64,000 nucleotides of DNA from contig MU004241.1 of NCBI GenBank assembly GCA_010405405.1, positions 124,001-188,000 on the forward strand, given 5' to 3'. Within the stretch, counting starts at the first letter, position 1. Each line of letters begins with the position of its first letter. Source of the DNA: Microthyrium microscopicum (taxonomy: Eukaryota). Of this stretch, positions 3,424 to 45,257 are shown piece after piece. The notes under the pieces are model-generated. The model was not told where the DNA came from, searched no databases, and was given only the letters and a program-made list of their open reading frames with translations. The position numbers were made by a program, and so were the translations under genes.

Positions 3424-3680
3424 TCCTTTTTTTGTACTCTTGGGCCATGAAAACAGAATCTCAGAACTATATTTTTGGATATATAGCTGGTATAACTTTT
3501 TTTCATCATTATGCAACTCGAGTGTATTTATGCATTGTTTGACGCTTTGACCAGGTGATTTGAGCCTCAAATTGTGCAAGTCATCTTTGATGCATCTCCA
3601 AGTTCCAACAAAACATCCCTCTCGGAACAATCGCCAGGGGGAAGAGTCATCGCAAAGCGGGAGTCAGCGCCGACTATTTC

Positions 3681-6487
3681 ATGAGGTGCTGCGCCTGGCA
3701 ATCAAAGCTCCCAAAGCTGGGCAGAATCTTGATACCACCACTTCCACTGCATCCCGCCAGAGTGTGCCTAAACTTCTATTCGCAACAAACCTTTCGGCCA
3801 GCACCGTCGCGCAGACTCGTCATGGCCTCTATCGTCCTTGATGAAGTCGAAAAGACTTTTCGCACATTACTCCTGGACGTGGTCAAATTTATCGAAGAAA
3901 CACCTAATATCGAGTCTTCCAATGTCTCGCTGCCCGAAAAGCTTGCCAAAGCACCACTCACTATTCGTTGGACAGGAGGATGGGTTCGCGACAAGTTGAT
4001 CCATGTACCAAGCAAAGATATTGATGTTGCCATCAACAAAATGACAGGATATCAATTTGCTATGTGCATCAAGAACTTCCTGGAGCTGCCGCATGTTTCT
4101 GAGAAATATGGCAAAAAGCCTCTGAAGCTTCATAAGATCGAGGCCAATCCTGACAAGTCCAAGCACCTAGAGACCACAACCATCCGACTTTTCGATCTCG
4201 ATATAGATTTTGTAAATCTGCGCAAAGAGACGTACACAGAGGAGTCACGAAATCCTCAAGTCGAATTTGGTACCCCTGAAGAAGACGCTCTAAGGCGTGA
4301 TGCCACTATCAACGCAATGTTTTACAACATCCACACCTCATCTGTCGAAGACTTTACCAACCGTGGGCTTGAAGATTTGAAAAACGGAATTATACGAACT
4401 CCGTTGGACCCTCGCACAACATTCTTAGACGACCCTCTCCGTGTATTGCGCTTGATCCGATTTGCGACACGTTATGGCTACGAAATCGACGAAGACTCAC
4501 GCAAATCTATGGCCAGCAAAGACATTAAGAAAGCCCTTATGGCCAAGATCACTCGCGAACGCGTCTGGACGGAGCTGGAAAAAATGTTGAGAGGGCCTGA
4601 TCCAAAAGCAGCTTTGAAATATGTCCATGATCTGGGACTTTATGAGGTGGTTTTTGTTGATCCTTCAAATCCGGATTTTTACCACCCCGATCTGGTAAAT
4701 TGGTCTACTGTCTACAGTCTAGTCGATGAAATCATTCACGAGACCTCCATTTCAACACAAACAATCAAGGCCATCGCCGTTCACGACAAAGAGAGCGAGT
4801 TTATTGCTTGGATGATTGCTTCGTTAGTGCCTTGGACAGATGCACCTGAGGCACCTCCTTTGAAATCTGGTCGCGCGGCTCCACCAATGATTGCTACAGT
4901 GGCCAAAGAAGGACTGAAGACCACAAGCAAGCTCTGGGACTTGTATACGCTAAGCGTGCAGCATATGGAAGCAATTCGAACTTTCAAGAGTAAGAGCAGC
5001 CTGGCGCGGGACTCCCTTGGTATGGCCATTCGGAAATGGGGACCAACTTGGACGCAACAAGTATTGTTTTCCATGGTTCATGAGGTTATGGAGGAGCCTG
5101 ACAAGAAGATGGGTAATACACGAGAGCACTTCATGAAGCTACCAAAGCGCTAACCTTTTCAGGGATCCTCAAAGCATACTCTGAATTTTTGAACAAATGC
5201 AAGGCAATGAACTTACTCGAAGCGTACTCATTCAAGCCGCTTCTTGATGGAAAACAGCTTGCTGCGGCCTTATCTACAAAACCAGGTGTTTGGATGAAAA
5301 CTGCATTGGACGTAGTCATGGCCTGGCAATTGCGTAATCCAGAGAACACAGACAAAGATGCTGTTCTAGAGCAAGTCCGGACTTGGAAAGAGACCTACCA
5401 ACCAGAACCAGAACCTCCAAAGAAGAAGCAAAAAAAGCAGGGTGAGCTGACTTCCGATCTAACTACCCATTTTCTTCGGCTCACTCTTCGTCCTCTTTTC
5501 TCGCAGACACCACGACCCCATGATCTCACTGAAGCCGGGCGACGAAACATAAACGCCAGTGTACTTCGAAAGGATATTTCAGGGGTGTTTGACGAAGACA
5601 TTCGACCGTGGAAAACAAAAGATTCTTGGGCCCTCGACTTATTATTGTGGGTATGCAAGAGCCTTGATCATGAGTGTGTTGAGCGTGAATGGGGCGTTTT
5701 AATCCCACCCGTTCTGACTGTTCTTGACGACACGGATGTTGAAATCAAAACTCGAGGCTGCCAACTTTTACAGAACTTGTTATTAAACACACCATCCGAT
5801 CTTCTCAAGCGAACAGGCCTGGTCCCCGTCTTTGAAGAATCCCTCCTCTCCTGCACCTCTTATTTACCTACACTCACTCCCGAAAAAGAGTCTATCACCA
5901 TCCTCAATGCAGCATTTCCTGCTCTCATTGCTTTAGCCGACGCTGCATATCCAATAAGCCCCGAACAGACACATTCCCCTCCCAAAGTCAAATTCCTTCT
6001 CAAAGTCCTTCGTCAGGCTTTCTTTGCCGGCTACAAACATGCCGGTGAAAACATTCGTGTTGCAGAGACATTACTTATAAACCTAGTACCGTTACTAAGA
6101 GCACTTGGTATTGACTCCGTGATCCACTTGAAGGACCTTGTTCCTATTCTGTCAGATCTTCTGGATGATCCCTTTGGACCTGCATCACCTGCCCTGATGA
6201 CTGCGGGATTGAAAGCTTCGGCAGAGCTGATCCAGGTGGCACGCCCTCGCATAGGCTACTATCGCGGCAGCATACTCAAAGGTCTTACCGGACTCTGGCT
6301 GAGGCTGGATGAAGATAAAGGGCTTGAGCAGTCTGAAACAGACTCTCTGCGAGAGCGATTGAGAGATGTGTTCGCGGCACTTGATGACGCCGTGAAGAGC
6401 GAGAATGAATGGAACAAGGACTGGGCCAAGGAACGGAAAAGTTTGACTGATGCAGATGAGCGCTTGAGCAAGCTTTTTGCTTCCTAG
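3681..6487 (+). CDS. CCA1: CCA tRNA nucleotidyltransferase fused in frame to a C-terminal Tti2-like domain; exons 3681-5112 and 5163-6487, ~918 aa
   Basis: Class II nucleotidyltransferase motifs GGWVRDKL, DIDVA, DFVNLRKETY, EDALRRDATINA, DDPLRVLRLIRFA. Intron 5113-5162 (GTAATA..GCTAAC..CAG) joins in frame to KPLLDGKQL. From ~5441 the sequence reads as fungal Tti2 (LRPLFS, PWK, LIPPVLTVLDD, TGLVPVFEE, YLPTLTPEKES). Confidence 0.88.
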
Positions 6488-6574
6488 CCTGGCAGTGTAG
6501 ATCTGTCTATCTGTGGTAATTACAAAATCTGGTGTGAAATCTGGTCTTGTGAGTGCATCCTTATGCTTCTGATA

Positions 6575-7627
6575 CTATTTCTCTGGTCCAAGCAAGCCTT
6601 TGACAATGATATTCTGCTGTGCTTCACCTGCCAGGAATCTTTGCACGTTCTCAGTTAGCATTCGGGTGAGATTGAGTCTTGTCAGTTCCGAGAACCATGC
6701 AACATGTGGGCTTGCCACGAAGTTCGCATCATCTGCCAAGTCCCTGAGAAGAGGAGTGTCGTTTTGATCCGATGGTTCCACGTCAAAGACGTCGGTCGCA
6801 TAGCCTGCGATCTGCTTCTCGTTCAAGGCCTTTGTCATAGCCGCCTCGTCCACAATTCCTCCCCGCGAAACATTAACCACCAACGCATTTCTCCGCATTG
6901 CCTGCAATTCTTCTGTCGATATCAAGTTCAACGTTTCAGTCGTCTTCGGACACACCACCACCAATGTCGTCGCGACCTTTAACAGCTTTCCAAAGCTCAC
7001 TCTCTTCGGATTCTTCAGATCCACGCTCTCAATCTCGTCACTCTCCCCTTCCACCACCACGCCCTTCCGCCCTGATACAATAACCTGCATTCCCAACGCC
7101 TTCATTAACTCCGCCACTCGCTTTCCAATCGCGCCATATCCCACAATCCCACAGACCTCCTCCCGTAATGTTATCGGCCAGACACCATCCGCATCCCTCA
7201 TATATCTCGTCAAACTCTTACTAGCTTTCCACTCGCCCGCCATCGTTCGATTATGCATTTGCGGCACACTTTTTCTTGCCGCAAAGTATAGCGCGATCAC
7301 ATGTTCTGCTACAGCATCCGTATTTGCGCCTGGTGTATTACTAACTCCAATGCCACGTTCCTCACATGCCTTCAAGTCGATATTATCAGTGCCGACGCCT
7401 AGCGTGGCGATGAAGCGCAGTTTAGGTGTGATTGAGGGTGATAGAATCTCAGCGGTGAAGTTTATAGTTGGCATGCCAATTATGATCGTGGCGTCGAGGA
7501 TGCGTTCGCGTAAGTCGGCGGCGGAGGTGGTCGGGTACGAGGTTTGCGTTGCTGTATGTGGAGCGGGGATAGGGAAGGTCGGGATTGGCATATGGATGCC
7601 CTCGAGGACGACGATGTGGTGATGCAT
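6575..7627 (-). CDS. D-isomer-specific 2-hydroxyacid dehydrogenase (glycerate dehydrogenase/hydroxypyruvate reductase-like)
   Basis: GVGTDNID, VAEH, Rossmann GIVGYGAIG, catalytic NVSRGGIVDE, DVFDVEP, SPHVAW; intronless 350 aa ORF. Confidence 0.92.
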   Translation of the reverse strand: MHHHIVVLEGIHMPIPTFPIPAPHTATQTSYPTTSAADLRERILDATIIIGMPTINFTAEILSPSITPKLRFIATLGVGTDNIDLKACEERGIGVSNTPGANTDAVAEHVIALYFAARKSVPQMHNRTMAGEWKASKSLTRYMRDADGVWPITLREEVCGIVGYGAIGKRVAELMKALGMQVIVSGRKGVVVEGESDEIESVDLKNPKRVSFGKLLKVATTLVVVCPKTTETLNLISTEELQAMRRNALVVNVSRGGIVDEAAMTKALNEKQIAGYATDVFDVEPSDQNDTPLLRDLADDANFVASPHVAWFSELTRLNLTRMLTENVQRFLAGEAQQNIIVKGLLGPEK

Positions 7628-8969
7628 TGCTGCGGTATGGACTGTATGAGGCAGCTTGCGAGATTGGATCTCAAGGTGGTTGAGTGGGAGAAGCGGATTA
7701 TATGGTCATGGTGGATCTGAGTCTGACGCCCTAGGGATTACATGTGTGGATGATATCCGAAGTGGGCGATTACCTGTAGTGAGCCGTGGAAATAACGGTG
7801 GTGCTGACATGTCAGCGTCCCAAGTGAAGATTGCAGAAGACGCTGAAATAGACTGTATACATATCGCATGCTAGTACTTTAATACACTCTACCAAGCTGT
7901 ATGTGCTAATCGAGAAGGACACGCACATATAGCCACTCGATACAGCATGACAACCTTCCAGTCTTGAGAACTCGTATTCTGAGGTTGAACCATCTCAGTA
8001 TCATTCTTGGATTCTAGCCGAGACTTATGGCCATGTATTTACCATCAAATGTTCAAAGGCGCTTATTGATCTCTCCACCGTGTAACATATCGAAGCAATG
8101 TCAAGATGGAGTTATGCACAAGTAAATAATCGAATATCTCGGCTATTGGCGGCACTCTGAAACATAATTTTTGATCCCACGTTACTCGACATGCACTAAC
8201 AGCGACTGGGGCCAGGGGCTACGGAGTACAGAGGATTAGCCGCCCGCCACTAAGATTCTGGCTTGGCTGTATACGGTTAGCTCAGCCTCATAGGAATCCT
8301 TCCTTCCCTTTATCAAAGCTTGACTTTCCATTGGATTTGAGTTACTTACTGTGCCGCTGGAATCATGTTGCCCTCTCCCTTAGAGCTTTCTTTAGAAACA
8401 CGAGCTTTGGATCGGTCTAAAGGACACTGGTTTTGAAATCCCCAACCAATTCCGTTGAAATTTGTGCTTAGGCCAGTCAGTCAGAGTCAGATGTCAAATT
8501 GGGTTTTCATGATTTTGCTCAATCTCAGCGGCGCAGTAACGATCAATAAGTTTGTCGAATCTCAGTCAAATGCAATCTTCGGAAGTGCAAGCCAGGTCTT
8601 GGCGACTGGAATATCTAGGGCGCTATAGGCTGTTTGGAATTCTCCAATTCTGCTGGTTGTCAAGAAGGTCAAGTACACAAGCCTCCACGACCAGTCGCTC
8701 CAGCTGCTGCTCCAAGATTGGAAGCGTCAGAGACGTTGGCTAAAGCACGGCTTCCCGGTTCCTATTCTCAATAAGTATTGACCAATCCCCAGGATCTTGA
8801 TTTGGTATCTTGTTTCTTGGCTCTCATATTCTGTCAAACCGTTCTGGGAAACTGCCTGCTCTCCATGCTCCATGATACCCAACTTTTCACGTATATGACG
8901 ACCAGCCCTGGCCGTCTATGATCATTTGTCAATACTAGCTCACGTCTGTGAAAGTCATTGATTTATAGG

Positions 8970-25578: not shown

Positions 25579-26399
25579 TACGTTCAATAAAAGTCGTTCA
25601 ACTGTTGGTTAATGTCTGAGCGCCTTTCATAAAGTGGAATAGTATGAATGTTGGACTGAAGTTGACCATCAGGAAAAGGAAGGCCCGCATACGAAGCAGA
25701 GCTAGGTAGGATGTCTTATCGTATTTGGCGTCGGAAAGCTTTACTGGAAATAATGTAAGGAATTATCAAGTGAAGTAGGCAAATGTTTAAACGATAATTA
25801 GATAGGTTATCTTAGTTTCTCAGACGTAGCAAGCTGCTTTAAAAATAGGTCGCCTTTGGCTCCCTACTTAGTTAGAGAGCTTTTAGCTCTTGCTAACTAA
25901 GTATCCCTAGCTATCCTATATAGAATCTAGCTTGCCCTTAGCTAATTAAATATTTTAGGACGTACGTAATTTTAAAGTAGCTTATTATATCTAAGTAACT
26001 CTTATTCTATTTTAGTATATACTTACTTAATATTTATTAGTAGAAGTAATTATTTTTAAACTATATTATCTCTATAACTACTTATATTATTATATTAATT
26101 TTTATATTAGTTTAATTACCTTATTCTCCTTTTTAATTTATATTTATTATATTAATATAAAAGTATTACGCTAAATCTAAATATTTAGCCTAGAATAACC
26201 TAGTTAGTAGGGGTTTAATTATAACCCTAATATAATAATAGAAATAGCCTATCCTACTAAAATAATAATTTTAATTAGAAAGATAGTCTTTTTACCTTCT
26301 TAGGCCTATATTACCTTTTACTTTACTACTAAATTTTCTAATACTCTAGTTTTTTAGTTTATTACTTATCTATACTCTTTCTTCTACGTAGTTATAAAG

Positions 26400-29300
26400 T
26401 TAATATAGTAGTAATATAAAAGAGAATGAAGAAGAAGAAGATGTAGATAAGGAAGAATATAAAGAAGATAAAGAATAGGAAGAGTATAAAAAAGAGGAAG
26501 AATATAATAAAGAGAATAAATATAAAGAACTACGTAATATCTCTAGTACTTGCTTCTCTTTAGTATCCCTTATTCTTTCTTTTATTACTATACGTAGTAA
26601 TAAAATAATAAATAATAAGAAGCTAGATTTAGTACTTATATATCTTAACTCTATTAATTAGTTATTTACTAAGTTTCTTAATATATAGATTAAAATAAAG
26701 GAATACGATTAAAAGCTTACTATATAATATTAACTATATTAGTTAGTAGAATAACGTTAACTCACCTTAGACTCTCTACTTAGGTTTTACTATTTAATAA
26801 ATCTTATTAAGAGTAAGGAGTATTTATAAAGCTTCGTTAATAAATTATAAAACCTCTTAGATATACCTTAGTTTAGTTAGTTTAATTTTAAAGTAGCTCT
26901 AAGTTCTATTAACTTTATTACGAATATTAAGTAGTTATAGTTAGTAGCTCCTTAATAGGTAGCTTTTTATTATAATATAATATAGTATAATTAGAGTAAG
27001 TATAGTTTATATAAAGCTAGATTTTTAGGTATAGATAATCTATATATTTTTCTTATTACTACTATAATATATAGCTATTAAAATTATTAGAAGTTTAATC
27101 TTTTATATTTATATTTAGGTATATATCTTTATCATACTAGTATTAAAAAGAGAGTTATATAGACATTAGGTACGTTTAGTATTTATTATAAGTATTACTA
27201 TATTATATAGACTATAAATTAAATTACTAGCTATTTAAGAGTAAGATTGCCCTTTTTAGTAGTATTTTATTCCTTATTCTTACTTATTATTTATTATATA
27301 TTATTATAATAACCTTCTAGTGTTTCTCTTATAGCAAGATATAGACGTTAGAATACTTACGTAAGTATCTCTATATATTCTATATTTATCCTTACTACTC
27401 CTTACTAGCCCTTATTCGTTATAAGGCCTTTTAATATCTATATTCTATAGACTATAAATATTAAAAGGCTTACGTAAGTATCTCTATATCTCTTATAATT
27501 ATCTTTACTAGCCTTAAATATTCTAGAGTTAATTTATAACTTTACGTTAATATATTTATAGTAAAAGCTTACTATATTTGCCTCTAATCCTTATATAGGC
27601 TTTATTTATAATAACTTTAACTATAAGGATTAAATTTAGAATAAGAGAGTTAGCTATAGTTATATTATAAGAAATCTAACTATAGCTACTATAGTTAAAT
27701 ATCCTTATTATCTACCTAGTAGGTTAACTTAAGATATATATAATCTAATATATAAATTATCTCTATGCTTAATTATAAATTCCCCTCTTTATAAAGGGTA
27801 CTTAATTAGTAAACCTATAGCTAATACTATTAAGAAAGTCTTAATATATATAAGTTTTAAAGAAACCTTTAAGACTAAACTTAAGAATAGGTTTACTAAT
27901 AATAAAGATAAAAAGAAGGAACTAGTATAACTATAGCTTAATTAACTTCCCTTAATTAAAACTAAATATTAATAGCTTACTAGTATATTTAAAAATAAAG
28001 GTATTATAAATAGTATATATAATATATATTACAAAATCTTTATAGACGTACTTAAGTTTCTAAAATATAGTTTAGATAAAGTAAGTATATTAAGTATAAA
28101 CTTCTTATTAATATTTATAGCTAACTAACTTATTAATAGGCAAACCTTATATCTTTACCTATTAATTATTTCTTATATATAAAAATTAACTTAGTATAAA
28201 GAATAATCGTACTATAAAATCTAAGTAATCTTATTTATCTTAGGCCTTTAATTAAAAGGAGTAGCTTTATCTAATTATTAAGTAGTTTTATACTTAAAAG
28301 TATCTTAAAGAGAGCATTATTAAGAGCTATTAGGAACCTATTAACTACTATAAGTATGCTTTATATTCTATTAAGCATAATATTACTACTTAGGGTCGCT
28401 TAAAGAATAAAATATACTAGTCTATCTAGTTATATAAGCTAGAACCTATTTTATAATAAGTATTTAATACTTAAAACCTAGCCTTATTTAAGCTTACTTT
28501 ACGCTATTATAGATACTACTCTTTAAATATAACTTCTAATATACTAGTAAATAATATAATTATAGAAGATATTATTAAGATATTAATAGTAAATTAGGTA
28601 GTTAAAATTATTTAGAATATTTAAACTCTTATATATTAGGTAGAAGGTTAAACTAGTTTATATAAGAATAAAGAAGGTAGTATAATAGTACTAGAGGACG
28701 TTAATATTTAGTTCTAAACGTTATATTAATATATATAAGAGATCTACTTATTATTAATACTAAAGCATATTATTAAATATATAGATATTAGTTTACTTTA
28801 CTAGCTAATTAATCTTATAATATATTAGTTCTATAGGTCTAGTTCTAATAATTATAGTAATAAAATAATATAGCTTAAGTAGAATATACTAAATACTATT
28901 AATAAATTAGAGTTATAACGCGCTATACTAGCTTCTAGCCTAGTTAACTAGCTTAGTAAACTATATACTTATAAGGCTATAAATTTAGGCTTAGAATATA
29001 TAAATAGTAGTATAAAACTAGATATAAAGGCTTAAAAGAATTTAACCTATAATATTTATACTACTTTTAATTACATATACCTTATAAATAGTTTTAGTAA
29101 AGAGTTAAAAGCTACGCTAAAGGGTTTATTTAGTAAATATATATTTAGTATAAGGAGTATTACTATTATAAAGCATAACATTAATATAATATATAATACT
29201 TTAATTTAAGGTAATTTTATAAAGCATTAGTCTCTAAAGGCTATCTAGATTAGAAGAAATAATTATAACTCTTAAAATATATAGATACTTAAAGCCTTAA

Positions 29301-29540
29301 TGCTTACTAATAAGGTAAAGGCGTTTAATAAAAAGTATATAGTAATTCTAAGTTAAGCGCGTATAATACTTAAGAATAGTAGAGACGTTAAGCTAAAATT
29401 TAATACTAGTATAGTAATAGATTATACTTAAGCTTAAGATACTAAAAAAGAAGATAAGTTTAGTAACTTTAGAAATATTAATAGATTTTAACCTAAGTTT
29501 TTAAGTTAGTTTAATTATATATATTATAATAAAAAGGCTT
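26400..29540 (+). pseudogene. RIP-inactivated DUF6589-type putative transposase
   Basis: Read directly: GFIYNNFNYKD (27598-27630), RAILASSLVN* (28919-28951), KAINLGLEYIN (28973-29005). Reversing C>T/G>A gives YDNFxYKD, FExEGTxDG, HGDQL (~28178-28192), GWFH (~28280), K(H/Y)xDIGLL, NYGxEM, LVNWLG, KAIDLGLEHxN, KNSTHD. Confidence 0.75.
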
Positions 29541-29821
29541 AACTTATTAAATTTACTTACTTATTAGTAAAGAGTTATTTAGGAGCCTATTAGGCTAACT
29601 AGGTATTAGTAGATATAGTTAGTAATTTAGTATTTTTAGTTTATAACTTAGGAATTATCTTAACTTCTAAAGAGCTCTTATAATTTATACTACTTTACTT
29701 ATAACTACTTTTACTCTTCCTATTTATAAACCTATCCTAATCTAATTAGTTTTAAAGGTTTATTTATTTATAAGTAATATAGATATAGTACTATAGTAGA
29801 TACTAATTTTGTTTCTCTTAT

Positions 29822-29980
29822 TAACCTATAGGCTAATCTAAGCCTAGTCTTACTAAGCCTAAATATAATATTTAAGTCTCTTTTACTAACCTTTAGGCTA
29901 ATCTAAGTAACTCCTTGCTAAGCCTAAATATAATATCTAAGTCTCTCTTACTAACCTTTAGGCTAATTTAAGTAACTCCT
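29822..29980 (+). repeat. 65-bp tandem repeat, ~2.5 copies
   Basis: taacct(a/t)taggctaat(c/t)taag recurs at 29822, 29887, 29952. Confidence 0.8.
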
Positions 29981-32440
29981 TATATATTTCTATTATATTA
30001 GGTATTATCCTTTATAAGAAGTATTATAATATTAATAATATAGTAGATAAGATCTATTACTTTCCTCCTAATCTACTTACCTTTAGTATAATTAGCTATA
30101 AGTATTATAATACTAACTACGTTATAATACTAGTATCTATCTAATTATTCTAAACTTACTTATATTTAGTATTATTAATAATAAGTATTACAATGCTAAC
30201 TAAGTTATAAACTATAACTATCTTATTACTCTAAACTTACTTATTATTAATATTATATCTTATAACTAGGATACGCTAAAGTCCTTACTCTATATTATAC
30301 TAAAGGAAAGTAGTTAAAGTTTAAGTACTTATTAGATATCTAGCTACCTTACTACTAATTCTTTTACTATATATAATATTAAGTAAGACTACTATACTAT
30401 AATCTTTTACTTAGCGCTATATCTTCTTAGCTTTAACTAGTTTATTAGTTACTCTAGCTATAGATTCTTAGAGTTCTAAAATTTTATTTATATATTAGTT
30501 ACCTAAGTACTAGTTTTTAATACTAATAGTTCTATAAACCTTAAATAATATACTTATATATTAAATTTCTTTTGTATATATATTACTAATAATAAGCATT
30601 AAACTCTCTATAATAGCTACTCTTATCTTAATAATAATAAGATTCTATAGATAACTAACTAGAAGTTAACTTACGTAAGTAGTATTAAAAGCTTATATAT
30701 TTTTATTACCTAAGTTATTTATAATTATTTATATTAGCTATTTCTATTAGTTAGAATATATAAGAAAATATATAGAAAGACTTACTTCTATAAATAGTTT
30801 ATTAAATGCTACTCTTATATTAGAAGCTCTTATCTAATCTAGAAGGGGAGAGTTTAAGTACTAAATAGTAATAATAATACTAATAGCTTATATACTTACT
30901 AACTTTATATTATACTAAATAAAAGTAGTTAGAGTTTAAGTACTTTTATCTAATCTAGAAAGGGAGGGTTTAAGTACTAAATAGTAATAATAATACTAAT
31001 AACCTACTAAAGCCTAAATAAGACGCTTTTATAGTACTTAATACTCTTTATATTATTATAGATATAATTTTGACTATTAATAGTAATAATAATTAGTTAG
31101 CTAAAGTCCTTACTCTATACCGCACTAGAGGAAGATAGTTAGAGTTTAAGTACTTAAGCCTTATCTAAGAGGTAAGATTTTAATATCTAATCTATTCTAT
31201 AATACGCTAATTTATTAGTTTACCCTACTATAGCATGTATAGGCTAATTATAGACGAAGTAAAAGGAAGCAACCTTATAAGATTAGAACGCTCTTTATAT
31301 ATATCTTAAAGCAACTTAATAATAAGTATAGAATTAAGCATAGTAAAGTTTACCTAAGAATAAGTAGTATTATAAGTTACGCTAATATACTAGTATTAAT
31401 AAACGCGTAAATTTCTATAAGCCTTCTAGGTAATAGGATTATCTAGATACTAAGTTAGCTATCTTACTTAGAAGGGTTAATTTACTAGAGATACCTTCTA
31501 ATCGTAGTAAGGCTTTAATTAAAAACGAGTAGTATTATAAGTTATACTAGCGTATAGAAATTAATAAGTATATAAGTTAACTATCTTACTTAAAAGAGTA
31601 GATTTATAAAGGATACCTTCTTAATACTATACGTTGTAATAGTTATTAATAACTATTAGGGGTTCTATAAGCCTTTTAGACGCTAAGAATATCTAGGCAC
31701 TAAATTAGCTATCTTACTTAGAAGAACGAGCTTACTATACTATTTTATAAGTCTTTTTATTACTAGTAGCTACTCTTAGCTTTTTAAAATAAATAATAAC
31801 CTCTATTATAAGTAACGTAAGTAATATTTACTATCGTTTTAATTAAATACCTTAGTAGCAGCTCCTTCTATTTATAACCTATATATTAGGATATATATAG
31901 ATATATAGGTATTAATAGATTTTAGTAGGTATTAATAGGTTCTAGTAGATATACCTACGTAAGTAGTATTATTAGTAATAAGAATAACTCCCTAGTTAAA
32001 ATAGAAGCTTACGTTCTATAAAACTATAGATTTAAGAATACCTAATTAAAATAGAAGCTTACATTCTATTAAGATAGTAGATTTAAGAACTATAACTACC
32101 TAGTTAAAATAAAAGCTTATATTTTATAAGATAGTAGATTTAATACTATAATATAAGTACTCTAGCTATAAAGCATATAAAGAATGCTATATTAATTAGA
32201 AAATTAGTAATAAGAGTATAGTAATCCTTAGAAAGAATATAAAGAATAAGTTTTCTTAGTAAGTCTAGGTACTTTACTATCTTAAGCTTTAGCTCTACTA
32301 AATTAGGATAAAAGATTAGTAATAAGGATATAGTAATTCTTAGAAAGAATATACTAAATTAGTTAGAAGATTAATAATAAGGATATAATAATTCTTTAAC
32401 TCTTCCTCTTTTTCCTTTTCTTCTTTCTTTCTTTTTTAGT

Positions 32441-32770
32441 ACGCTAATAGCCTTAATATTAATAGTAAAGCACGCCTAGCAATACTTCTTACTACTTTTA
32501 GTTACTATCTAGTTTTTTAGTCTTTAATAGTTCTTTTACTACTATTACTTCCTTAAATTTAAGAACTTAACTACCCTAGTACGCTAATAGCCTTAGTATT
32601 AGTAGTAAAGCATACTAGTAATACTTTTTACTACTTTTAGTTACTATCTAGTCTTCTAGTCTTTAATAGTTCTTTTACTACTATTGCTTCCTTAAATTTA
32701 AGGACTTAACTACTCTAATATACTAATAGCTCTAATATTAGTAGTACTAAAGCATACTAATAGCCTTAGT
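32441..32770 (+). repeat. ~140-bp tandem repeat, ~2.3 copies
   Basis: acgctaatagcctt at 32441 and 32581, degenerate third start at ~32720. Confidence 0.8.
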
Positions 32771-32994
32771 ATTTTAGCCTAAGCTTAGTATATTAATAGT
32801 AGTAATATCTCTTAAAAGTCTATTATAAGCATATTCTAGCTACTTTCTAAAGAGACTAATACTATCCTCGTAATATTAGATTTAAACTTACTTAAAGAAG
32901 AATTCTTAAGGGTCTATAGAGTATAAATATCTTTCTTCCCTTATTTATCTTCCTCTTCTTCTTTTTCCTCTATATTATTTACTTATAGTACCTT

Positions 32995-33325
32995 TACTAA
33001 AGTATAAATAAGCTCTATAAAACTATAATTACTCTATTTTACTAAAATAATAATATAAAGTCTACTACCTACTTTAGGCTAATACTAGAGTATAAATAAG
33101 CTCTATAGAACTATAATTACTCTATCCTACTAAACTAATAGTATAAAGTCTACTACCTACTTTAGGCTAACGCTAGAGTATAAACTAGCTCTATAAAACT
33201 ATAATTACTCTATCTTGCTAAACTAATAGTATAAAGTTTACTACTTACTTTAGGCTAACGCTAGAGCATAAACTAGCTTAATAGAACTATAATTACTCTA
33301 TCCTACTAAATTAATAATATAAAAA
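32995..33325 (+). repeat. 88-bp tandem repeat, ~3.7 copies (extra single copy at ~40426-40518)
   Basis: ag(t/c)ataaa..agct..ata(a/g)aactataattactctat starts at 33001, 33089, 33177, 33265. Confidence 0.88.
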
Positions 33326-33450
33326 CCTATATAAGTTTAGAAGCACCTACTATAATATTATGCGCGCTTCTCTATAGCTCCTAATACTTAAGATTAATAC
33401 CCTTAAGGTAAGCTAGCTTACTTTGCTACTTTTAATAATACCTTTACTAC

Positions 33451-33690
33451 AGCTTTAGTTATAGCCTATTTAGGTATAGCTATTATAAAGAAGGTGCTTA
33501 TACTAGTAACTATAATAGCTTTAGTTATAGCCTATCTAGGTATAGCTATTATAAAGAAGGTACTTATACTAGTAACTATAATAGCTTTAGTTATAGCCTA
33601 TCTAGGTATAGCTATTATAGAAAAGGTACTTATACTAGCGACTATAATAGCTTTAATTATAGCCTATCTAGGTATAGCTATTATAAATAA
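33451..33690 (+). repeat. 66-bp tandem repeat, ~3.6 copies
   Basis: agcttta(g/a)ttatagcctat(c/t)taggtatagctattata at 33451, 33517, 33583, 33649. Confidence 0.9.
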
Positions 33691-36600
33691 GAAAAGAGCT
33701 ACTAGAAGTATTAATTAGTTAATTATATTAGTATTAGGCAACTACTAGATTAGCTTAACGTATCTATTATATTTAGTAGCTATAATTATTCTTAAAGCTT
33801 ATATTATAGAACTAGATATTAATCTAGTCTTTTATAATACTTAGAATATAACCTTCTTCTCTTTCTCTCCTTTTTATTAATTTAGTAGACTTATTCTTAT
33901 ATTTAACCTATAAGGAAGCACAAAACGAAGTAGTTAATATTAAGTACCTACTACTATATACCTTATTTAGCTTTAAATAGAAAGATATATAAGCATAATT
34001 ATTAGCTATTTATTATAAAAGGGTCATTATAAGATAATTAAAATTAGAAGTAAGTCTTTAATCTTTTATTATAGTATTAAAAGTAGACGTAATAAATAGA
34101 TACTTTCTTCTAAACTTATAGTAGTAAATAAGATCTTATAGACTTAGTTAATAAAACTAGCGTCTTAAATATAAAAGTCTATATTAATATTAATATTAAC
34201 TTAACTTCCTTATATTATTCTTTTATATTATTAGTATAGCTTAATATATATAGTATTAATCTTCTTTACTTAGGGTAGTATTATAGATATTGCTTTAGAT
34301 TAACGTAATAGATAAATAAAGTAGTAGAAGGTTAGGCTTTAATTAGTATATTCTAGTATAGTTTTATAATATATATTTAACTACTTAAGATAATAGTTAG
34401 ATAGTATTACGTTTAAGATAAGCTATTAGATAAATAAGTAGAGTAGTAATAAGGTAAATAATAGTAGTATATTATAGTATAGGTTAGTAATTAAGATATA
34501 TAAGTTAAACTAAATCTCTATACTAAAGTATATATATATTATATAAGATTATATTATTTAAGAAATATATAAATAGAATATAATTCTAAATAGTAGTAGT
34601 ATATAAACTAGTATAAGTAAACTTTAAATAATAATTAGCTATAGTATAAGTAAGAATATAATAGAATAAGTAGGTATACTTATATTATATTTATATATAG
34701 TTAGTTATTCTATTAGTTTGTAGCTCTAAAAAATGCTCTATTTTAAATATTTACTAAATATATAGTAGTTAAAGTATAAATTATATTAACTTAATTTAAC
34801 TTACGTTTTCTTTACTTCCTATTGTTAAATTGTTAGGCTTATTTTATAGACGTATTCTTTACTTATTATATTAAGATTTATTTACTTAATCTAATTAATA
34901 TCTTTATTCCTTTATAGCGACTTAAGATAGCGCTACTCTATTATTTTACGTTAATATTTAGTAACTAACCTTTATATTTTAACTAATAGAGAGCTTAAGA
35001 ACTATATTATAGTAATCTATATAATATCTTCTAATTTTTATTAAATAATATATACGTAGCCTATTAATTATAGATAGGTAGCCTAAGTATCTTAATACTA
35101 TATTTAAGAAACTATTTAAACTTAACCTTTTCTTTAATATTATAAACTTATATAATTATTAATATAAACTAAGTACTACTTATAGAGTAACCTTATTTAG
35201 TAGATAGCTACTTAGTATATAATTAAGTATATAAACTAGTAATAGCTTACTAAGTTGCTTATAACTCTTTATTTTATTAGTAGATAATATATAGCTATCC
35301 TAATATAAGTAGAAAGGCCTTATTTAGAATATATAGCGTATTTAGGCTATATTCTATACCTACTTATTATAAACTAATAATTCCTTAAGTAGAATTTATA
35401 AAGAGCTAATAATTAAACTTTAAGTATCTATAATCTTAGTAAATAACGTTTAATATAGGCTAACCCTAAAAAGATTAATTATAAAGTATTTAGCTATATT
35501 TAGGCAAGGTAAGGCATATATAGGTAAGGTAGAGCAAAGTAAGTATACTTATATTATTATAATCTAACTATAATCTCTAATATTCTATAATAAAATCTCT
35601 AAATTACTTAACTCTCTATATTCTAAACTTTACTAACTACTAATATTTACTACTATCTACTACTTTAAGCCTAATTCCTATAACTTTATATAGTTAGCTT
35701 ACCTAAAATCCTACTATTAATTATAATAAGCTTATTAAGCTTTAGGATAGTAGAGAAATATTAATTAAAATACTTATTAGCTATAATAACTAGATTTGCG
35801 TACTAATATTTTATTTTAGTAATAAATATCTCCTCTTATACTCTAAAGATAAGACTATTTATTACTAGGATATTTTATAAAAAGATACGTTATTCCTATA
35901 GCTTATTAGAAATAGCCTATATAGATAAATATAATACTAGTAGATAAGACTTAAGAATAATAGGTATAAGCTAAAATAATTTTAGCCTTATCCTAAGTAA
36001 ATATTTACTTACTAACTTAGTATTAATTAATATATTTTGCTAATTATATAATTACTTTGTCTTAATCCTAAAACCTTATTAAAAAAGGCGTAATTCTAAT
36101 TAATAAATATAAGAACTTTACTTTTATAATCCTAGTTAAGTAGAAGGCCTTAAACTTATAAGTCTCTAATATAAGTAGCTACTTAGGTCCTATATAGCTT
36201 AAAAGTTATCTAATAAAGCTATCTAAAAATACTATAACGTTTAAATACTAAACGTAGTAATAATATTTAATTAATATATATTAATATCTATAAGAACTCT
36301 ATAGTACTATATATTTATAGACTTTACTACGTTTAGAACCTAACAATTATACTATAAAGTATTTATAGTCTAATAAATATTTACTAGCTACGTATAGTAA
36401 ATATTTACTATTATCTTAAAGATTATTTAGTTATAGACTTTAAAGTTAACGTTACTAATAATAACTTAATAACCTAAGTTAATATTAGTATCTTTTACTA
36501 AAAACTCTTTTGCTTTTTAAGAACTATATAGTTTAGCTCTTTTGCTCCTTAAGAACTATATAGTCTAATCTTTCTACTTTTTAAGAACTATAATAGTCTA

Positions 36601-36744
36601 GTTTAATTATAGAGTTTATATACTATAGTCTAGTAGTAAAAGTATATACCTTAATTAAGCCTTTATAAAGTACTTAAAGGATTATAATATTTATATTTTA
36701 ATACTTATTATAAGTACTTATAGAATATAAACTTATCTTATTCT

Positions 36745-36950
36745 GCCTATCTCTTAGCCTTATATTATTCTAGGCTATTTTATTTATTAGTAATAACATA
36801 TATTCTTTTAGCCTAGATATTTATATCTACTATTATTACTAAACTATTTTGCCTATTTCTTAGCCTTATATTATTCTAGGCTATCTTATTTATTAGTAAT
36901 AATATATATTCTTTTAGCCTAGACATTTATACCTACTATTATTACTAAAT
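36745..36950 (+). repeat. 106-bp tandem duplication
   Basis: gcctat(c/t)tcttagccttatattattctaggctat at 36745 and 36851. Confidence 0.85.
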
Positions 36951-37934
36951 AGTAGAACTAATTATTACTAGCTAGGCATAGCTAAAATATTACTATATAG
37001 ATATAATATAGTAGATTACTCTCTAGCGTTAAACTATATACTATATATATTTACGCTAATTTAGTTATTACTTACTACTACGTTAAGGGTAATAATACTT
37101 ACTATAACTTTACGCTTTTACTATTAAGTTACCTTCTTAGTTTCTCTATTAATTAAACTAATAACTATTCCCTAATAATTTAGCGTTCTTATCCTTTCAT
37201 TTAATAATATAGCCTAAATATATATAGCAAAAGCTAATATATGCGTATATTAGTAAGTATAATAGTAAAGGTAGTTTCTATTTAACATAGCCTATTAAAA
37301 GCTAATATTAAAGCTAAAAAAGGATACAAGCTATCTATTGCTATTCTCTAAATACCTTTAGAGAATAAAGTAGATAGCGTTCTAATATTAGTAGAGCTAT
37401 AGTTAATAAGAACGTAGGTTTTAGTAGCAAGATAAATAAATAAACTAAAGATAACATAATATAGTAGCTTAATATACTAAGATAATTATTAGATTAAGAG
37501 AATAAGGTAGAAGATAGTATAGCGGATTAAGTTAATAGATTAGATTATTAGCTTATAGGTTTATATTATTTTAATCGTAAGAGTATAGTAATAATAACTA
37601 GTTCTAAAATTAATATCCTTTAAGATTCTTAATATTACCTAATTATCCCTAGATATCTTATATCTTACTAAATATACCCTTCTAATACCTAACTAGTTAT
37701 AAAGTTTAATAAAATACTAGACTACTTATTTTAGGCTAGTATATTCTATAGTTCTATAAGGTATATATTAGCTATATAGATATTATATATTTTCTAACTT
37801 TACTTATTTATAACTAACTATTTACTAATATTAATATTTATATTATAACGTATATAATAGATAATAAGACGATAAGAACGATATTATTAATATACCTAAT
37901 ATAATTAATTTAAATAACTATAATATATTACTAT

Positions 37935-38160
37935 ATACTTATAATGCTTATAACGTACGCCTTATAGGATACTTATAGCTTTTAGAGTAACTCCTACTTA
38001 CTTCTTATAGAACCTAATTAAATAATATAATTATAAAGATATTAAAGAATACTAAATATACCTATAACCTTATAATATACGCCTTATAAGATACCTATAA
38101 CTTTTAGAGTAATTCCTACTTACTTCTTATAAGACTTAATTAAATAATATAATTATAAAG
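37935..38160 (+). repeat. ~122-bp tandem duplication
   Basis: gccttata(g/a)gatac(t/c)tata(g/a)cttttagagtaa at 37959 and 38081. Confidence 0.8.
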
Positions 38161-41117
38161 AAAGCATAAGATATTAAACGCTTAAGTAGTTATCGTTATT
38201 ATAAGAAGTATATATTAATATATTATTCTATACTAACTACCTACTCTAAACTACTACTCTCTAAACCTTTGTCTTCTAACTAGTCTATAAACTAAATAAT
38301 TTACTTAGAGTCTTATACTCTATAACTTTACCCTTAGATTTATAATAATTATCTCTAAAGGTATAGTTCTTAAAAAATATAATATAATAGGCATAATAAC
38401 TTCTAGGATTCTTCTACGTATCTTTTACTTTCTACGTAAATTACTAATATTTTTATCTATGCTTAATATATACTAAATATATAGTAGTATCTAGTACACA
38501 TTTATTAAAAGTTATCTTTATTATATAGCTAATATTACTATATAGTTTTTTTTTTAGAATATTAAGATATTTTACTTCTTAGTAGTCTAAGACTACTATT
38601 TATTAAGTATAGTAAGATGCCTTACGTCTAGACTTAGCTTCGTTACTATAAAATACGGCTAGCTAAGGTTAATTCTAGCTATTAAGCTAGAGTTAAATTT
38701 TTATATAAGCACGTTATGCTTAGCCTTAGTAAGAATAGGGGCAGAAAGAAAGAGAGGGTTAAAATTAATAAGAGTCTTATCGTCTTCTTTGTCTTTATTA
38801 TCATTATTATTATTATTATCGTTATTATTATCGTCTATTAACTCATTATTACTAAAATTAAAGGGCAAACCTAAAAAAAAAGATAGCTTAGGCAAGCTAG
38901 ATATAAGAGAATCTAGAATAAAAAGAGGATTCTCTTCTTACTTAATAAGCGTAGCTAAATAAGCTTAATAAATAGCCTAGTAAGTATTAAACTTAACTTA
39001 CTAACTATAATTATTATTACTAATATCTATAAGTAATATATTAAAACTTATAAATTATTAAAGTTATAACGCTTTATAATATAACTAAAAATTCTATCCT
39101 CTAAATAAGTATATTTATCTTTTTAGCGTAGTATACTATAAGAAATTAACTTTACTTCCTTAATAAGCTAAGACAATAAAAGACTATTAAATAGCTAATA
39201 AGTAAAGATAATATATATATTAGGCATAGGATAGTATTAAGAGTATATCTTTCTTTTAAGGGTAGTAAAAGACGTAAATATATAAAGTTATAAAGTTAAG
39301 AAGTTAAAGTTTAAAAACTAAGAGGCATAAAGGCTTTAAAAAGACTATAATATAGTAGTTTTGCTATTTTAAATACTTAGTCTAATTAAGAGTATTAGCT
39401 ATTAAATAGTTATAATTACTTAATTTAGCAATACCTAGTTAGCCTATTATATCCTTATAAGGCTCTTATTTAATAAAAGAGATAGGATAGAATTAGTTAG
39501 TATATAAAGAGTATTAATAGCCTAAAAATTATATTAAAAGGGTATAATAAAGACCTAAGGCTATACTTCCTTAAAAGTAGTCTAGTTAAGTATAAAGAGA
39601 ACTACTTAAAAGAAGACCTAAAGGTATATAAAAATAAAGAAGAAAAGAGGATATATTTAGTATAGTAAGAAATATACTATTTAGGTAGTAGATATAATAG
39701 GTAGCACTTTATAAAGTTCTTACTACTACTTAATTAAGATAATAAAATTATAATATTAGTAGCCTTAATTAATTATAAAGAGTTATAAATAGTTAAATAT
39801 ATAATAAGAGTTACTATATAGTTTATACTTATTATATATATATTGTTTAGTTATAAAGTATAACTAGAATAGTAACAAGTAGAAAGTATATTATATCTAA
39901 TAAAAAGATTTATTAGGCATATTCTACTAGTATATTAATTACCTAAAGAAGAATATCTAGGCTTACTATATTATTTCTACCTAACCTAACCTCTACCTAG
40001 ACTAATAAAATAGATATATTATATAGTATTTTATTTATTAATACGTTATAAAACGCTAATATAGATTTATATAGTATTATTTCTTAGACTAAATACTATA
40101 CTAAAATTATAATCCCTATAACTTTAAATAACTATTAGCTTAAAGACTAACTCTCTACGTTAATAATATATACTATTCTTATATAACTTAATAGTTTTAA
40201 TCTAAATAGATATATTACTTTTAAAGAGAGTCTAGTAAAACTCCTCTCTATCCTTATAATAAAGATTTAGTAAAGTAATAACGATATTAAGAAAATATAT
40301 ATAGGAAAGGTTCTTAATAAAGAACTACTATAATATAATAAGTTACTAATAATAGAAGATAATAGGCTACTTAGCTATCTATATTATATTTCTTCTAATA
40401 TTCCCTAATAAGCATTAGAGTAACTAAGTTTACTACCTACTTTAAGCTAATGCTAGAGTATAAACTAGCTTTATAGAACTATAATTATTCTATCCTACTA
40501 AATTAATAGCATAGAGTCTTATAAAAGTTTATTAATATTATAATAATTTATAAGAAAGTCTTTATTAAAGAGTAAGATATACTACTAAAGAATAAAATAG
40601 ATAATAAAGATACTTACTACTAGTACTTTTTAATATATAGTACTATTAGCGCGCTTAATAGTATTAATATGCCTAATAGTTAATCTATTAAAGTTTAGCA
40701 TAGATTTAATACTACTAGTAATACTAACTCTATATTCTAAACTATATTATTCTTTAAGTAGTATCTTAACTATAGCTATATCTCCTAATATAGCTTAATT
40801 ACTATTTTTATAACTAAGAATAATTAATAGTCTCTTAAAGGCTAGCATATAAACTATACCTTTTAAGTAATTAAATAGTAAGACACTAAATATTCCTTAA
40901 TGCTAATTTTTAGCAAACCTGCTTAATTCTACGTTTCTACCTATAATATTAAAAAGTAAAGTACTTAAGCTACTAATAATTAGCTATATTAGCTTTATAC
41001 ACGAGGGATTAAAGTATAAGCCTTAGCTAAGTAAGGTTTACTTACTATTAGATTTTCTAATATTTAGTTCTTATTATAGTGTCTAGTTTCTATTACTTAA
41101 CAAAACTAGTAAGTAGG

Positions 41118-41290
41118 TAATACTAAGCAACGTAGAGAGGTAGAGCGTTATAGTAATACTAAGCGACGTAGAGAAGCGGAGCATCGTAGTAATATTAAGT
41201 AACGTAGAGAAGCTAAGCGTCATAGCGATACTAAGCAACGTAGAGAAGCTAAGCGTTATTATAATACTAAGTAATATAGAGAAGTTAAGT
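41118..41290 (+). repeat. 36-bp tandem repeat, ~5 copies
   Basis: Units start at 41118, 41154, 41190, 41226, 41262 ((t/c)(a/g)ata(c/t)taag(c/t)(a/g)acgtagagaag..); copies differ mostly by C/T and G/A. Confidence 0.9.
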
Positions 41291-41999
41291 ACTAAAATAG
41301 CTTTCTTACCTAAAAATATATATATTATATTTAAATAGATCTAAGTTAGGATACTATCTAGGTTTTACTAATACTTATAGTAATATTCTATTACGTCTTA
41401 GGAATACTTTAATATACTTACTAATCTTATATAAACTAGTAAATTTGTCTTTATTATTATACTTATAAAGAGCCTTCTTTATAATATATATTATAATATA
41501 TAGGCTTCGCAATAGGGCTTAATACTTAGATATCTATTTACTAAAGATATTATAATAATAACGAATAGGTAAAGTAGTTATAATAGACTAATAAATATAA
41601 TATACTATAAATATATATAGAAGAATATAACGCCTATAATAGATAAGAACCCTAAATACTAATATTTATAAACTTCTAAACTAAAAATATAAAATATAGT
41701 ACTTATATAACTATACTTACCTACTTCTTAGAATCCTATATAATTCTATATAGTTCCTTATAATACCTAAGCAAATAAAATAGTTAGAAAACTAAATATT
41801 TAGAATTATATATTAGGTTTAGCCTACTCTAATATTAGACGTAATATCTTTTTACTTATCTTTAATTCTCTTCTTATTAGTTAAGGAAAATACTCCTTTA
41901 TACTCTTTCTTATAGTCTTCTTAATAGTAATAGTTAAACTATTTTTCTCTAAAGTTATAGGTAAGGACTATCTTATACTAGCCTTAATTTAGTAATAAC

Positions 42000-44800
42000 G
42001 TAGTATTAACTAGCTTAATAAGTCTTAACTTAATAAATAACTCTTTTATTAAGCATAAGTTAAGTAATAAGTATAAAGAGTAGCAACTAGAATAATACTA
42101 TCTTTATTTAATATAGGTATTAGCTAATTAAATAGATTATTGTCTATATCTCCTTTATTATCTTTAGAATTAGTATCTATAAATCTCCTATATTTATCTA
42201 GGATATTACTATTATCTAAATCTATAACATTCTACTAATACTTAGTAAATAGTAAGGTTAGAATATTTATTAACGTAGAACCTCTAAATAAACTAATAAG
42301 AGTAAATATATATTTAATTAGCTAACTTATAAATAAATGAACCCTTTTATCTTCCTCTTATACTTTATAAGCCCTTTTTTATATTAACTTATTATCTATT
42401 AGTTTCTTAAGAACCTAGCGCTAAAGATTACTAGTTTAAGATAATATAAGTAGCTACGACTAAGACTTTAACTATAACACTATAACCTATATTTTCTTTA
42501 AGAGCTTTACTTTCTTAGCTATAAGGCGTGCTAAATAGTTAGCCTTATAAGTATCCTTATATAATTACTTAATAATAGTTTCTAGTTTTTAAAGGATAAA
42601 TAATAGTTTTCTCTCTAATATAATAGTATTAGTCTAATTAACTAAATTAAGAATATATATATATAATTTATCCTAAGTAGAATACTAAGTATTAAAAAGG
42701 AATTTAGTAGTATAGAAATAGGCTAGCTACCTAATTAAATTATTATCTAGTAACTAGTCCTTACCTTAAGGATATTTACTCTTATAATTATCCTCTATAT
42801 ATATAGCCTCTTCTATTACTAAAGACTAAACTTATAACTACGTTCTTATAATAGCTTTATAACTATTCTTATTTAAAGCCTACTTACGTAGTAGAAACGC
42901 TAACTAAACTAATTTATAAAACTTATCTAGATAGTATTTATTATAATATCTTAAAATTAGTATAGGATTATAATCTATTATCTAGAGTAAGAATTTACCT
43001 AGCTTATAGAGAATAGCTTCCTAGAAATAGTCTAAATAATTTATAATAACAAACTATTTATATAGGACTCTACTATAGGTTTTAACCTTAGCTTTAGACT
43101 AGAATAGAGGAATTAAACTAGGTATACTATTTAGTAGTATATTAGCTTCTTATATATTTATAACTAATACTTAAGAAGTAATAGACGTAATAGTAGATAC
43201 TTATAAGGTAGTGCTAGCTTTGCTTTTAATATCGCTATTATTAAATAGTAATTTAAGCTATAATATACTTAGACTAGCCCTATCCTAAATATAGAGTTAT
43301 TAATATTAAAGTAGCGTATAATTTTAAATCCTATATAAAGAGAATATAATCTAGATAGATTAAATAATTAGTAAACTTACCTAAATACCTTTCTATAAAT
43401 TAAGTTATTCTTATCTAAACATATTAAATATCTAATATAGAAGAAATACTATAGTAGTACTAAATAACTTATAACTATATCTACTATAATCTATACGCTA
43501 CTATAGATCTATAAGACTATATAGTATTAAGAACTCCTAAATAATAATTAATATAATATCTAATATATTAATACTAAGTCTTAGGCTTATAGTTATAATT
43601 ATAATTTAATAAAGTAAACCTAGAAGCTTAAATTCTTAGTACTAAACTATCTTATTATAGCTAAAGATAGTAGAAGTAATTTCTTAAATAAGGTTATAAA
43701 TATAATATACGCTATCCTTATTAAAGTAAGTATACTACTAGTTCTCTAAAAAGTCCTTAGTTAAACTAACTAAAGTAGCCTAAAAGTATTTTAATACTAT
43801 ATAGATCTTTAACTTGCTATTAATATATATAATAGTCTTTTTAATTAACTTAGAGGTAGCCTTCCTAGCCTTAGAGTTAACTATAGTATCTAAGATCTAA
43901 TAGAGTTTATTAAAAAATACTAACCTTTACTTAAGTATAAGCTTAAACTAGATTATAATATCCTAATAGTTAATAGAGGAGCGCATAATAATAGTTTATT
44001 ATTTATATAGTCCCTCTTCTTAGAATCTACTATAATAAAGAATAAACTATTATATAAGTAAACTTAAGGTGCTAGTATAACTAAACTATATAACGTCTTA
44101 GTATAGTATTATATAAAACTTATAAATTATAGTAAACTAAGACCTAAAATCCTACTATTATTTAACTAGGTAGTATTTATTAATAGCAACTATTCTAATT
44201 CTATTCTAGAAAATAGAATTACCTAATATACTATAAAAGAGCCTACTAGACATAGTCTTTAGTAAAATTAATATATAGATATACTAACTAGATATAATAT
44301 TAGTAGTAATATTCTTTAACTAGGTTATTATCTTACTATAAATAATAATAGGCTTAGACTTAGAGATAGCTAAGATACTATTAAATTATTTATCTTCTAA
44401 TTAGTTTATAGGAATTAACTATAAAGTAATCTTTCCTATTAATATAGAAAAGTTATATAGTATTAAACTCTTACTCTATTTAGTATAAGTAATAAGTAAA
44501 ATATTATAGCCTCTATATATTAGAAACCTTAAGGCCCTAACCTGTCTAAAATAAGGATTATAGCTAGTTAACTTCTATAAGTATAACTATAATATATACT
44601 CTTATATTTTAGCTAATAGCTAGATTTAAATAAATTATATAAGGGCGTAAATAGTATTAATTAATCCTAGTTATAAAGTAGTATATATAACTTTAAGTAA
44701 CCTCTTAGATTTCTAAAGGAGATAAGGTTTAGGTAATTATAAAAGTAAGTAATTAAGCTAGTTTTATTGTGGTAATTATAAGTACTAAGATTATAGTAGT
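42000..44800 (-). pseudogene. RIP-inactivated RecQ-like superfamily 2 helicase
   Basis: Minus-strand reading after reversing C>T/G>A: QVRALRFL, motif I AxTGWGKS (44490-44467), GKITLQLIP, YTHILISPE, motif II VAIDECH (44190-44170), QWxDFR, WFGCTSTL, motif V ATVSLGLGxD and VI DLWQRxGRGGR (~43600-43480), Zn-binding CYRK...CCNKCHP (~43050-42925). Ends approximate. Confidence 0.8.
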
Positions 44801-45046
44801 CTTAGTCTTAGTTTTAAAGTTTAGAGGTATTAGCTTATTTAGTTCTTCCTTTTACTTATAATACTATAAAAATAATATTAGTATTATTATTAAGGTATAC
44901 TATATAATAACCTATATCTAACTATTATACTTACTAACTTATAAATAATACTTACTAGTTAAGAAAGGAGTATATAGAACGGCTAAGGGTATATAAAGGT
45001 TTTATTAAGTTACGTAAGGATACTTACGTAAGCTAGATACTAATAA

Positions 45047-45257
45047 TACTAAAGGTATTAGAATACTAATAGTATTAGAATACTAATAGTATTAGAATAC
45101 TAAAGGCATTAGAATACTAATAGCATTAGAATACTAATAGTATTAGAATACTAAAGGCATTAAAATACTAATAGTATTAGAATACTAATAGCATTAGAAT
45201 ACTAATAGTATTGAAATACTAATAGTATTAGAATATTAATAGTATTAGAATACTAAA
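45047..45257 (+). repeat. 17-bp minisatellite, 12 copies plus a partial copy
   Basis: Unit tactaa(ta/ag)g(t/c)attagaa with exact 17-bp period from 45047 to 45251. Confidence 0.93.

Follow-up and report, generated by a model that had tools for sequence, protein, structure and literature searches.

The gene at positions 3681–6487 of the window (the whole 64,000-nucleotide stretch of Microthyrium microscopicum DNA analysed here) encodes a class II CCA-adding enzyme (PF01743) followed by Tti2 (PF10521), both domains being clear members of their families (Table 1). The junction between them lies in a 65-nt segment which an initial annotation had put forward as a possible frame-shifting exitron. 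The motif coordinates given there (GTGAGC following a G at 5442, CTAAC at 5459, GCTCAC at 5479, the first AG at 5505–5506 and TGA at 5521–5523) are all correct, and translation confirms that removal of the 65 nt gives ...KKQ-DTTTP-stop. If the segment is retained, the product is a CCA-Tti2 fusion of 871 aa (from ATG 3822) or 918 aa (from ATG 3681); if it is spliced, the product is a complete CCA-adding enzyme of 528 aa or 575 aa from the same two starts, consisting in the shorter version of residues 1–523 plus five shifted-frame residues and ending DTTTP-stop. The lengths of 575 and 918 aa proposed at first thus apply to the upstream ATG only. The leader opened by this ATG is a probable mitochondrial targeting extension; an RNA contig from run X1 begins at 3554, before the upstream ATG, and N-terminal extensions are also present in transcripts of relatives.

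Table 1. Features of the CCA-Tti2 gene, in window positions
Feature	Position	Strand	Evidence
Upstream ATG and 47-codon leader, Arg-rich and acid-free	3681..3821	+	ORF reading
Exon 1: class II CCA-adding enzyme head, neck and body	3822..5112	+	Pfam PF01743 (head) E 5.9e-27, PF12627 (RNA-binding)
Ordinary 50-nt intron, internal control	5113..5162	+	spliced in X1
Exon 2: CCA tail domain and basic linker (about 5396–5440)	5163..5441	+	
65-nt frame-shifting exitron; if retained, encodes first helix of Tti2 domain (residues 524–545)	5442..5506	+	
5' splice site GTGAGC, spelled by G/S-E-L codons	5442..5447	+	16/16 loci, third positions invariant
Weak branch-like site CTCAC, within L-T codons	5480..5484	+	CTTAC in 14/16 loci
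3' splice site CAG, a Q/K codon	5504..5506	+	AAG in 10/16, CAG in 6/16 fused loci
Shifted-frame tail and TGA stop (5521–5523) of spliced CCA-only mRNA	5507..5523	+	
Tti2 (PF10521) HEAT-solenoid part, intronless, stop TAG 6485–6487	5444..6487	+	profile 36–279 of 279, E 2e-72

The Pfam match to Tti2 begins inside the exitron, and the source annotation of this gene (P0001, 871 aa) is 100% identical to the fusion, with the exitron annotated as exon. A genome search returned one match to PF10521 and one to PF01743, both at this locus; Tel2 and Tti1 were found elsewhere in the genome. Since the sole Tti2 match is at this locus and the domain begins inside the intron, retention is the only apparent way to Tti2, and we infer that the fusion is its only apparent source in this genome.

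Contigs of X1 establish the segment 5442–5506 as a real intron that is spliced in M. microscopicum. The run behaves as RNA, since six introns are missing from its contigs over 10.2 kb, and at this locus a joint at 5440->5506, with 255 letters on its shorter side, skips exactly 65 letters bounded by GT..AG, hence a real intron. The contig carrying this joint spans 3554–8072 and also lacks the ordinary intron 5113–5162. Splicing thus occurs precisely at the junction proposed, both here and in a pair of transcript contigs from relatives (L010 and L013). The retained form was not found among the five X1 contigs, contigs being apt to drop rare variants, and the arithmetic of the bin depth (305.9 = 377.9 x 276/341) indicates that the interior of the intron is covered by no X1 contig. 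What was assembled in X1 is the spliced path, and the CCA-only mRNA appears to be the main form, the fusion a minor one. Of the switch between CCA1 alone and CCA1-Tti2 suggested initially, the splicing and the reliance on a single gene for both activities are therefore upheld, but it is the spliced form, not the fusion, that looks to be the main mRNA.

A first metagenome scan with a single protein query gave no relative among 592 candidate stretches. An alignment-based scan gave 80 loci. The fused junction is present in full, as DNA, in 15 of these (and truncated in one more), making 16 with the Microthyrium locus. The donor x-GTGAGC, a length of exactly 65 nt and an AG acceptor are present in 16/16 fused loci, and in every one the frame after splicing runs through a tail of 1–29 residues to a stop, so that donor, acceptor and early shifted-frame stop, whose conservation had been suggested as a check, are all kept. 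Because the loci were selected on their amino acids, codon choice provides a separate test. In 15 fused loci (one near copy dropped) there are 132 columns with a residue conserved in 60% or more, and the third base is invariant in three of these, namely the two donor codons and the acceptor codon, compared to 0/117 outside the intron. Given background codon use (GGT 0.20, AGT 0.10, GAG 0.53, AAG 0.56, CAG 0.54), the summed log10 probability of the frozen splice codons is -19.8, which is an overstatement as the loci are related; the column control is independent of that sum. At the protein level, 101 of 121 long homologues were parsed (the other 20, together with two further proteins, were left out). 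Position 0 of the exitron is S in 68, G in 32 and C in 1, all of which can be encoded as x-GT; position 21 is Q in 75, K in 21 and another residue in 5, these 5 carrying insertions; and LT is found at the branch-like site in 93/101.

The signals of the exitron are canonical (GT..AG in 16/16), with a branch site and acceptor weaker than those of the control intron. Using a protein-guided intron finder on 14 loci (there was no call for L032, and L023 was dropped as a near copy), CTRAY was found in 0/14 exitrons compared to 13/14 control introns, and YAG in 5/14 compared to 12/14; such weakness would fit partial retention. The branch site initially seen in CTAAC at 5459 is kept in 1/16 loci and must be abandoned in favour of the second candidate, within GCTCAC at 5479, whose position is conserved. 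The initial caveat that Leu, Phe and Ser codons can mimic a pyrimidine tract is justified for the tract itself, where third positions vary and no selection is seen beyond Leu/Pro/Phe codons, but does not extend to the donor and acceptor.

The frame through the 65-nt segment is open in 16/16 fused loci, with L, H, L, P and F invariant, synonymous codons mixed and no stop. Longer versions of the exitron differ by whole codons (offsets 22–24; among nine pairs compared, the offset was unique in three, and three had no compatible offset, two being misparsed and one cross-strain). Identity is 0.69 in the exitron compared to 0.53 in the control intron, which ranges from 47 to 58 nt (n=14). Conserved residues, free synonymous codons and length changes in whole codons together argue that the intron is also translated. 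On this comparative evidence the exitron-containing mRNA appears to be read as protein, and in at least two fungal classes the same 65 bases would have to satisfy two codes at once. It could be supposed instead that the intron is constitutive, with Tti2 made by reinitiation or ribosomal frameshifting, or that a -1 frameshift makes the CCA-only protein: an in-frame slippery heptamer, A-AAA-AAG (5431–5437), lies just before the donor, and a -1 shift there would give KKAG-stop. However, the heptamer is present in 1/16 loci and the first in-frame ATG after the acceptor varies in position from 15 to 230 codons, on which grounds -1 frameshifting and reinitiation were rejected, and a constitutive intron is at odds with conservation of its amino acids, which requires translation. 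We consider this whole set of explanations scarcely credible.

Both mRNA forms are present in relatives. L010, which matches the gene in L012 at 97–99%, lacks the ordinary intron and exactly the 65 nt, as does the transcript contig L013. A further 47 environmental proteins come from gene callers that do not splice, so that those without the ordinary intron can be taken as transcript-derived: 13 terminate within the ordinary intron; another 13, every one a fusion, continue through it; and the 21 without it comprise 17 CCA-only and 4 fused proteins (P0046, P0100, P0161, P0175). CCA-only proteins are thus 17/21 of the transcript-derived but 0/13 of those reading through the ordinary intron (Fisher p 5e-6, for rows that are not independent, several representing one species). 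The clusters of P0161 and P0175 hold DNA-derived members that enter the ordinary intron; this intron therefore exists in those species, and their fused contigs derive from transcripts in which the 65 nt had not been removed. The 4 contigs with retention might come from incompletely spliced nuclear RNA or be mosaics created by assembly. Both isoforms are annotated under consecutive accessions in Verruconis gallopava (KIV99591.1/KIV99592.1) and Ascochyta lentis (XPS76761.1/XPS76762.1), and a Cladosporium halotolerans model ends KKHGQTG, as predicted for the tails of L005, L006 and L023.

We consider it very probable that the fusion-junction intron acts as a switch between the CCA enzyme and CCA-Tti2, mostly spliced and retained in a minority of transcripts, the minority retention being deduced from conservation and the transcripts of relatives. 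Under this model a 65-nt (3n+2) spliceosomal intron spans the CCA/Tti2 junction; in most transcripts its removal would shift the frame into a stop within a few codons and yield a stand-alone CCA-adding enzyme, the form seen here at the RNA level, while a minority would keep the weak-signal intron and supply CCA-Tti2 to the Tel2-Tti1-Tti2 chaperone. Splicing efficiency would then set a high-CCA, low-Tti2 ratio from one promoter. According to the text of PMC4889661, yeast lives on very low Tti2, so a minor isoform would suffice.

A structural model of the fusion (mean pLDDT 90.8, pTM 0.82) places the exitron-coded helix, residues 525–543, in the Tti2 solenoid (pLDDT about 88–96). Residues 1–506 of the model match full CCA enzymes (Z 27.6 to 9kma), and residues 1–505 align with the full-length human enzyme 4x4w over 382 positions (Z 24.6, rmsd 5.5); the spliced product is accordingly modelled with the whole head-neck-body-tail CCA fold and is a predicted CCA-adding enzyme. 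It keeps the basic linker, as had been noted for this sequence, but the linker is lineage-specific and is absent in about half of 39 fusions. The fusion might alternatively be a bifunctional protein serving both roles, with the CCA-only form unimportant and splicing a tolerated noise or an NMD-linked damper. Most genome annotations of fused loci give only the fusion, and non-3n exitrons are described in PMC4484396 as often feeding NMD, which would suit such a protein. We nevertheless regard this as very improbable, since the spliced path is the one assembled in X1 and among most transcript-derived proteins, the splice-site codons are frozen across orders, and the cut falls directly after the complete CCA fold.

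The Tti2 part of the fusion matches human TTI2 chains with E 0.005–0.03; TTI2 chains were listed by neither VIA nor Foldseek for the two-domain model. HEAT-repeat matches begin at model residues 454–458, inside the CCA tail, a hint from the model that the shortened Tti2 solenoid is probably capped by helices of that tail. The predicted pair Tti1(590–1030) with fusion(425–871) scored 0.70, compared to 0.00 for the best control (partner pLDDT 79), with runs agreeing in 96% or more of contacts; the score mark is reached by 39/65 solved eukaryotic pairs without a like older complex and 2/126 unrelated pairs, and among microbial proteins by 51/78 solved and 2/108 mismatched pairs. The contact is predicted between fusion residues 701–862 and the Tti1 C-terminus, so the Tti2 part of the fusion is predicted to bind there, although the human TTT complex has been solved and the predictor may therefore be reproducing it. 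This interface in the C-terminal part of Tti2 is contrary to the pull-down described in the text of PMC8278493, in which human TTI2 1–193 retrieved TTI1. The full N-terminal region of stand-alone Tti2 (about 190 residues) is missing from the fusion, and N-terminal truncations of yeast Tti2 are stated in PMC4889661 not to be viable.

The start of the HEAT matches within the CCA tail also bears on a different source of Tti2. An internal promoter could give a shorter, intron-retaining transcript whose translation starts at a CCA-tail Met within a conserved W-M or V-M-A-W motif, the fusion itself being incidental. M475 is invariant and M483 nearly so, and the piece 425–871 is enough for the predicted Tti1 contact. 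However, both methionines are also found in unfused CCA enzymes, so that CCA structure explains them; the four fused transcript-derived proteins have CCA and Tti2 in one frame; and the same intron must still be retained. We therefore think an internal promoter improbable and prefer retention in the full-length transcript.

Among unfused fungi, CCA1 is followed by TTI2 in a same-strand tandem at ten loci (L015, L016, L018, L025, L026, L030, L033, L039, L043, L044), and at L041 the two are convergent neighbours. The tandem arrangement makes it probable that the exitron arose at the gene-fusion junction, in Dothideomycetes/Arthoniomycetes. Unfused CCA enzymes often end E-L-x-x-stop, where the fusion has G/S-E-L. 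The GTGAG donor is absent at the matching place of Tti2 in the 8 unfused loci aligned in register, and unfused Tti2 has other residues in place of L-T and carries introns absent from the fused genes. Stand-alone Tti2s (520–580 aa) have about 190 more N-terminal residues than fused Tti2. We propose that these genes, tandem neighbours in many Pezizomycotina, would have been fused by a deletion in the ancestor of Dothideomycetes and Arthoniomycetes which took out the stop codon of CCA, the sequence between the genes and the first 190 or so codons of Tti2, and that the donor would have been recruited from the last CCA codons (x-E-L), the branch site and acceptor from Tti2 codons (L-T ... K/Q). Splicing leaves an mRNA whose 3' UTR, at about 1 kb, might attract NMD; loss of the downstream introns could protect it from the junction-dependent form of this decay.

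Fusions with a named source span many Dothideomycete orders and the Arthoniomycetes (Chrysothrix, Coniocarpon) and also occur in Xylona and Candelina; named stand-alone Tti2s come from genera which we take to belong to the Eurotio-, Sordario-, Leotio-, Lecanoro- and Pezizomycetes. In a quick tree of 67 rows (P0240 and P0250 skipped), 29/32 fused rows fall together (SH-aLRT 98), with the Xylona and Candelina fused rows apart from these 29 (93), a pattern compatible with one origin of the fusion or with several. Two Candelina fusion models (P0033, P0166) lack the G/S-E-L and K/Q residues, possibly reflecting another junction logic or a gene-model artefact. Two further models, P0270 (Helicocarpus griseus, 1236 aa) and P0321 (1090 aa), seem to join CCA to full-length Tti2 complete with its N-terminal region, and may represent neighbouring genes that were merged or else a read-through precursor of the fusion.

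The closest logic is that of vertebrate MOCS1A/MOCS1AB, where one splice form of a single locus gives the upstream enzyme alone and the downstream activity is made solely as a fusion, by another splice form. In MOCS1, however, the A and B activities belong to the same pathway and the fusion arises when a stop is spliced out, whereas here the functions are unrelated and it is retention that gives the fusion, the roles of splicing and retention being swapped. The downstream ORF here has no other Tti2 gene in the genome and no conserved downstream ATG to fall back on. The programmed frameshifts of dnaX (tau/gamma) and copA/CopZ likewise produce long and short N-coterminal products in a set ratio from one gene, but these are translational and bacterial and make products of one machine, and there is no conserved slippery site here. 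Yeast, human and the remaining Pezizomycotina classes encountered here have one gene for CCA and another for Tti2, in contrast to the fusion with its Tti2 shorter by about 190 residues.

By the defining features set out in the main text of Marquez et al. 2015 (PMC4484396), the segment 5442–5506 is an exitron of the frame-shifting class. Like the non-3n exitrons described there, such as that of FOSB/deltaFOSB, it is a stop-free coding segment with weak canonical signals whose removal gives a frame-shifted short C-terminus. It differs from those described in that main text in three respects: there the exitron-containing isoform is the major one in most cases, whereas here the spliced form seems to dominate, as judged from contigs without levels; origin there is by intron loss, here probably by gene fusion; and the exitron here lies where two genes were joined and selects between essential proteins of unrelated function. 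The terms 'fungi' and 'gene fusion' are absent from the same main text. In the openly licensed literature we found no description of the CCA-Tti2 locus and no paper pairing 'tRNA nucleotidyltransferase' with 'Tti2', although supplements of genome-wide intron-retention studies could list the event.

The locus shows how a lineage can live with, and fix, the fusion of two essential genes of unrelated function: an intron newly made from coding letters of both partners restores the upstream enzyme and would meter the downstream one. Most annotations in these fungi would list the minor isoform only, and knock-outs of 'CCA1' or 'TTI2' would hit both functions. A broader and distinctly speculative reading, which we think rather unlikely in its entirety, is that the exitron is a conserved, regulated switch linking the maturation of tRNA 3' ends to the amounts of TOR, Mec1/ATR and Tra1 kinases available in Dothideomyceta, and that the CCA enzyme is also a structural part of TTT, its tail replacing the lost Tti2 N-terminus, possibly with tRNA sensing for PIKK assembly. 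The locus offers a clean two-allele test (locked spliced/locked retained) of a link between tRNA maturation and TOR/ATR chaperoning.

The contig spanning 3554–8072 joins the CCA-Tti2 gene to a convergent 2-hydroxyacid dehydrogenase gene (minus-strand frame 6575–7705), which suggests that the two have overlapping 3' ends. A 48-letter stretch with GC..AG ends is skipped at 8744–8793 and is a possible non-canonical intron. Minus-strand neighbours on the other side are a Snf7-domain gene (385–1807), spliced at two introns, and a GNAT acetyltransferase (2193–2993). Further along the window, an AT-rich block at 26001–46000 (GC about 0.22, TpA/ApT 1.69, (CpA+TpG)/(ApC+GpT) 0.10) bears the signature of repeat-induced point mutation.
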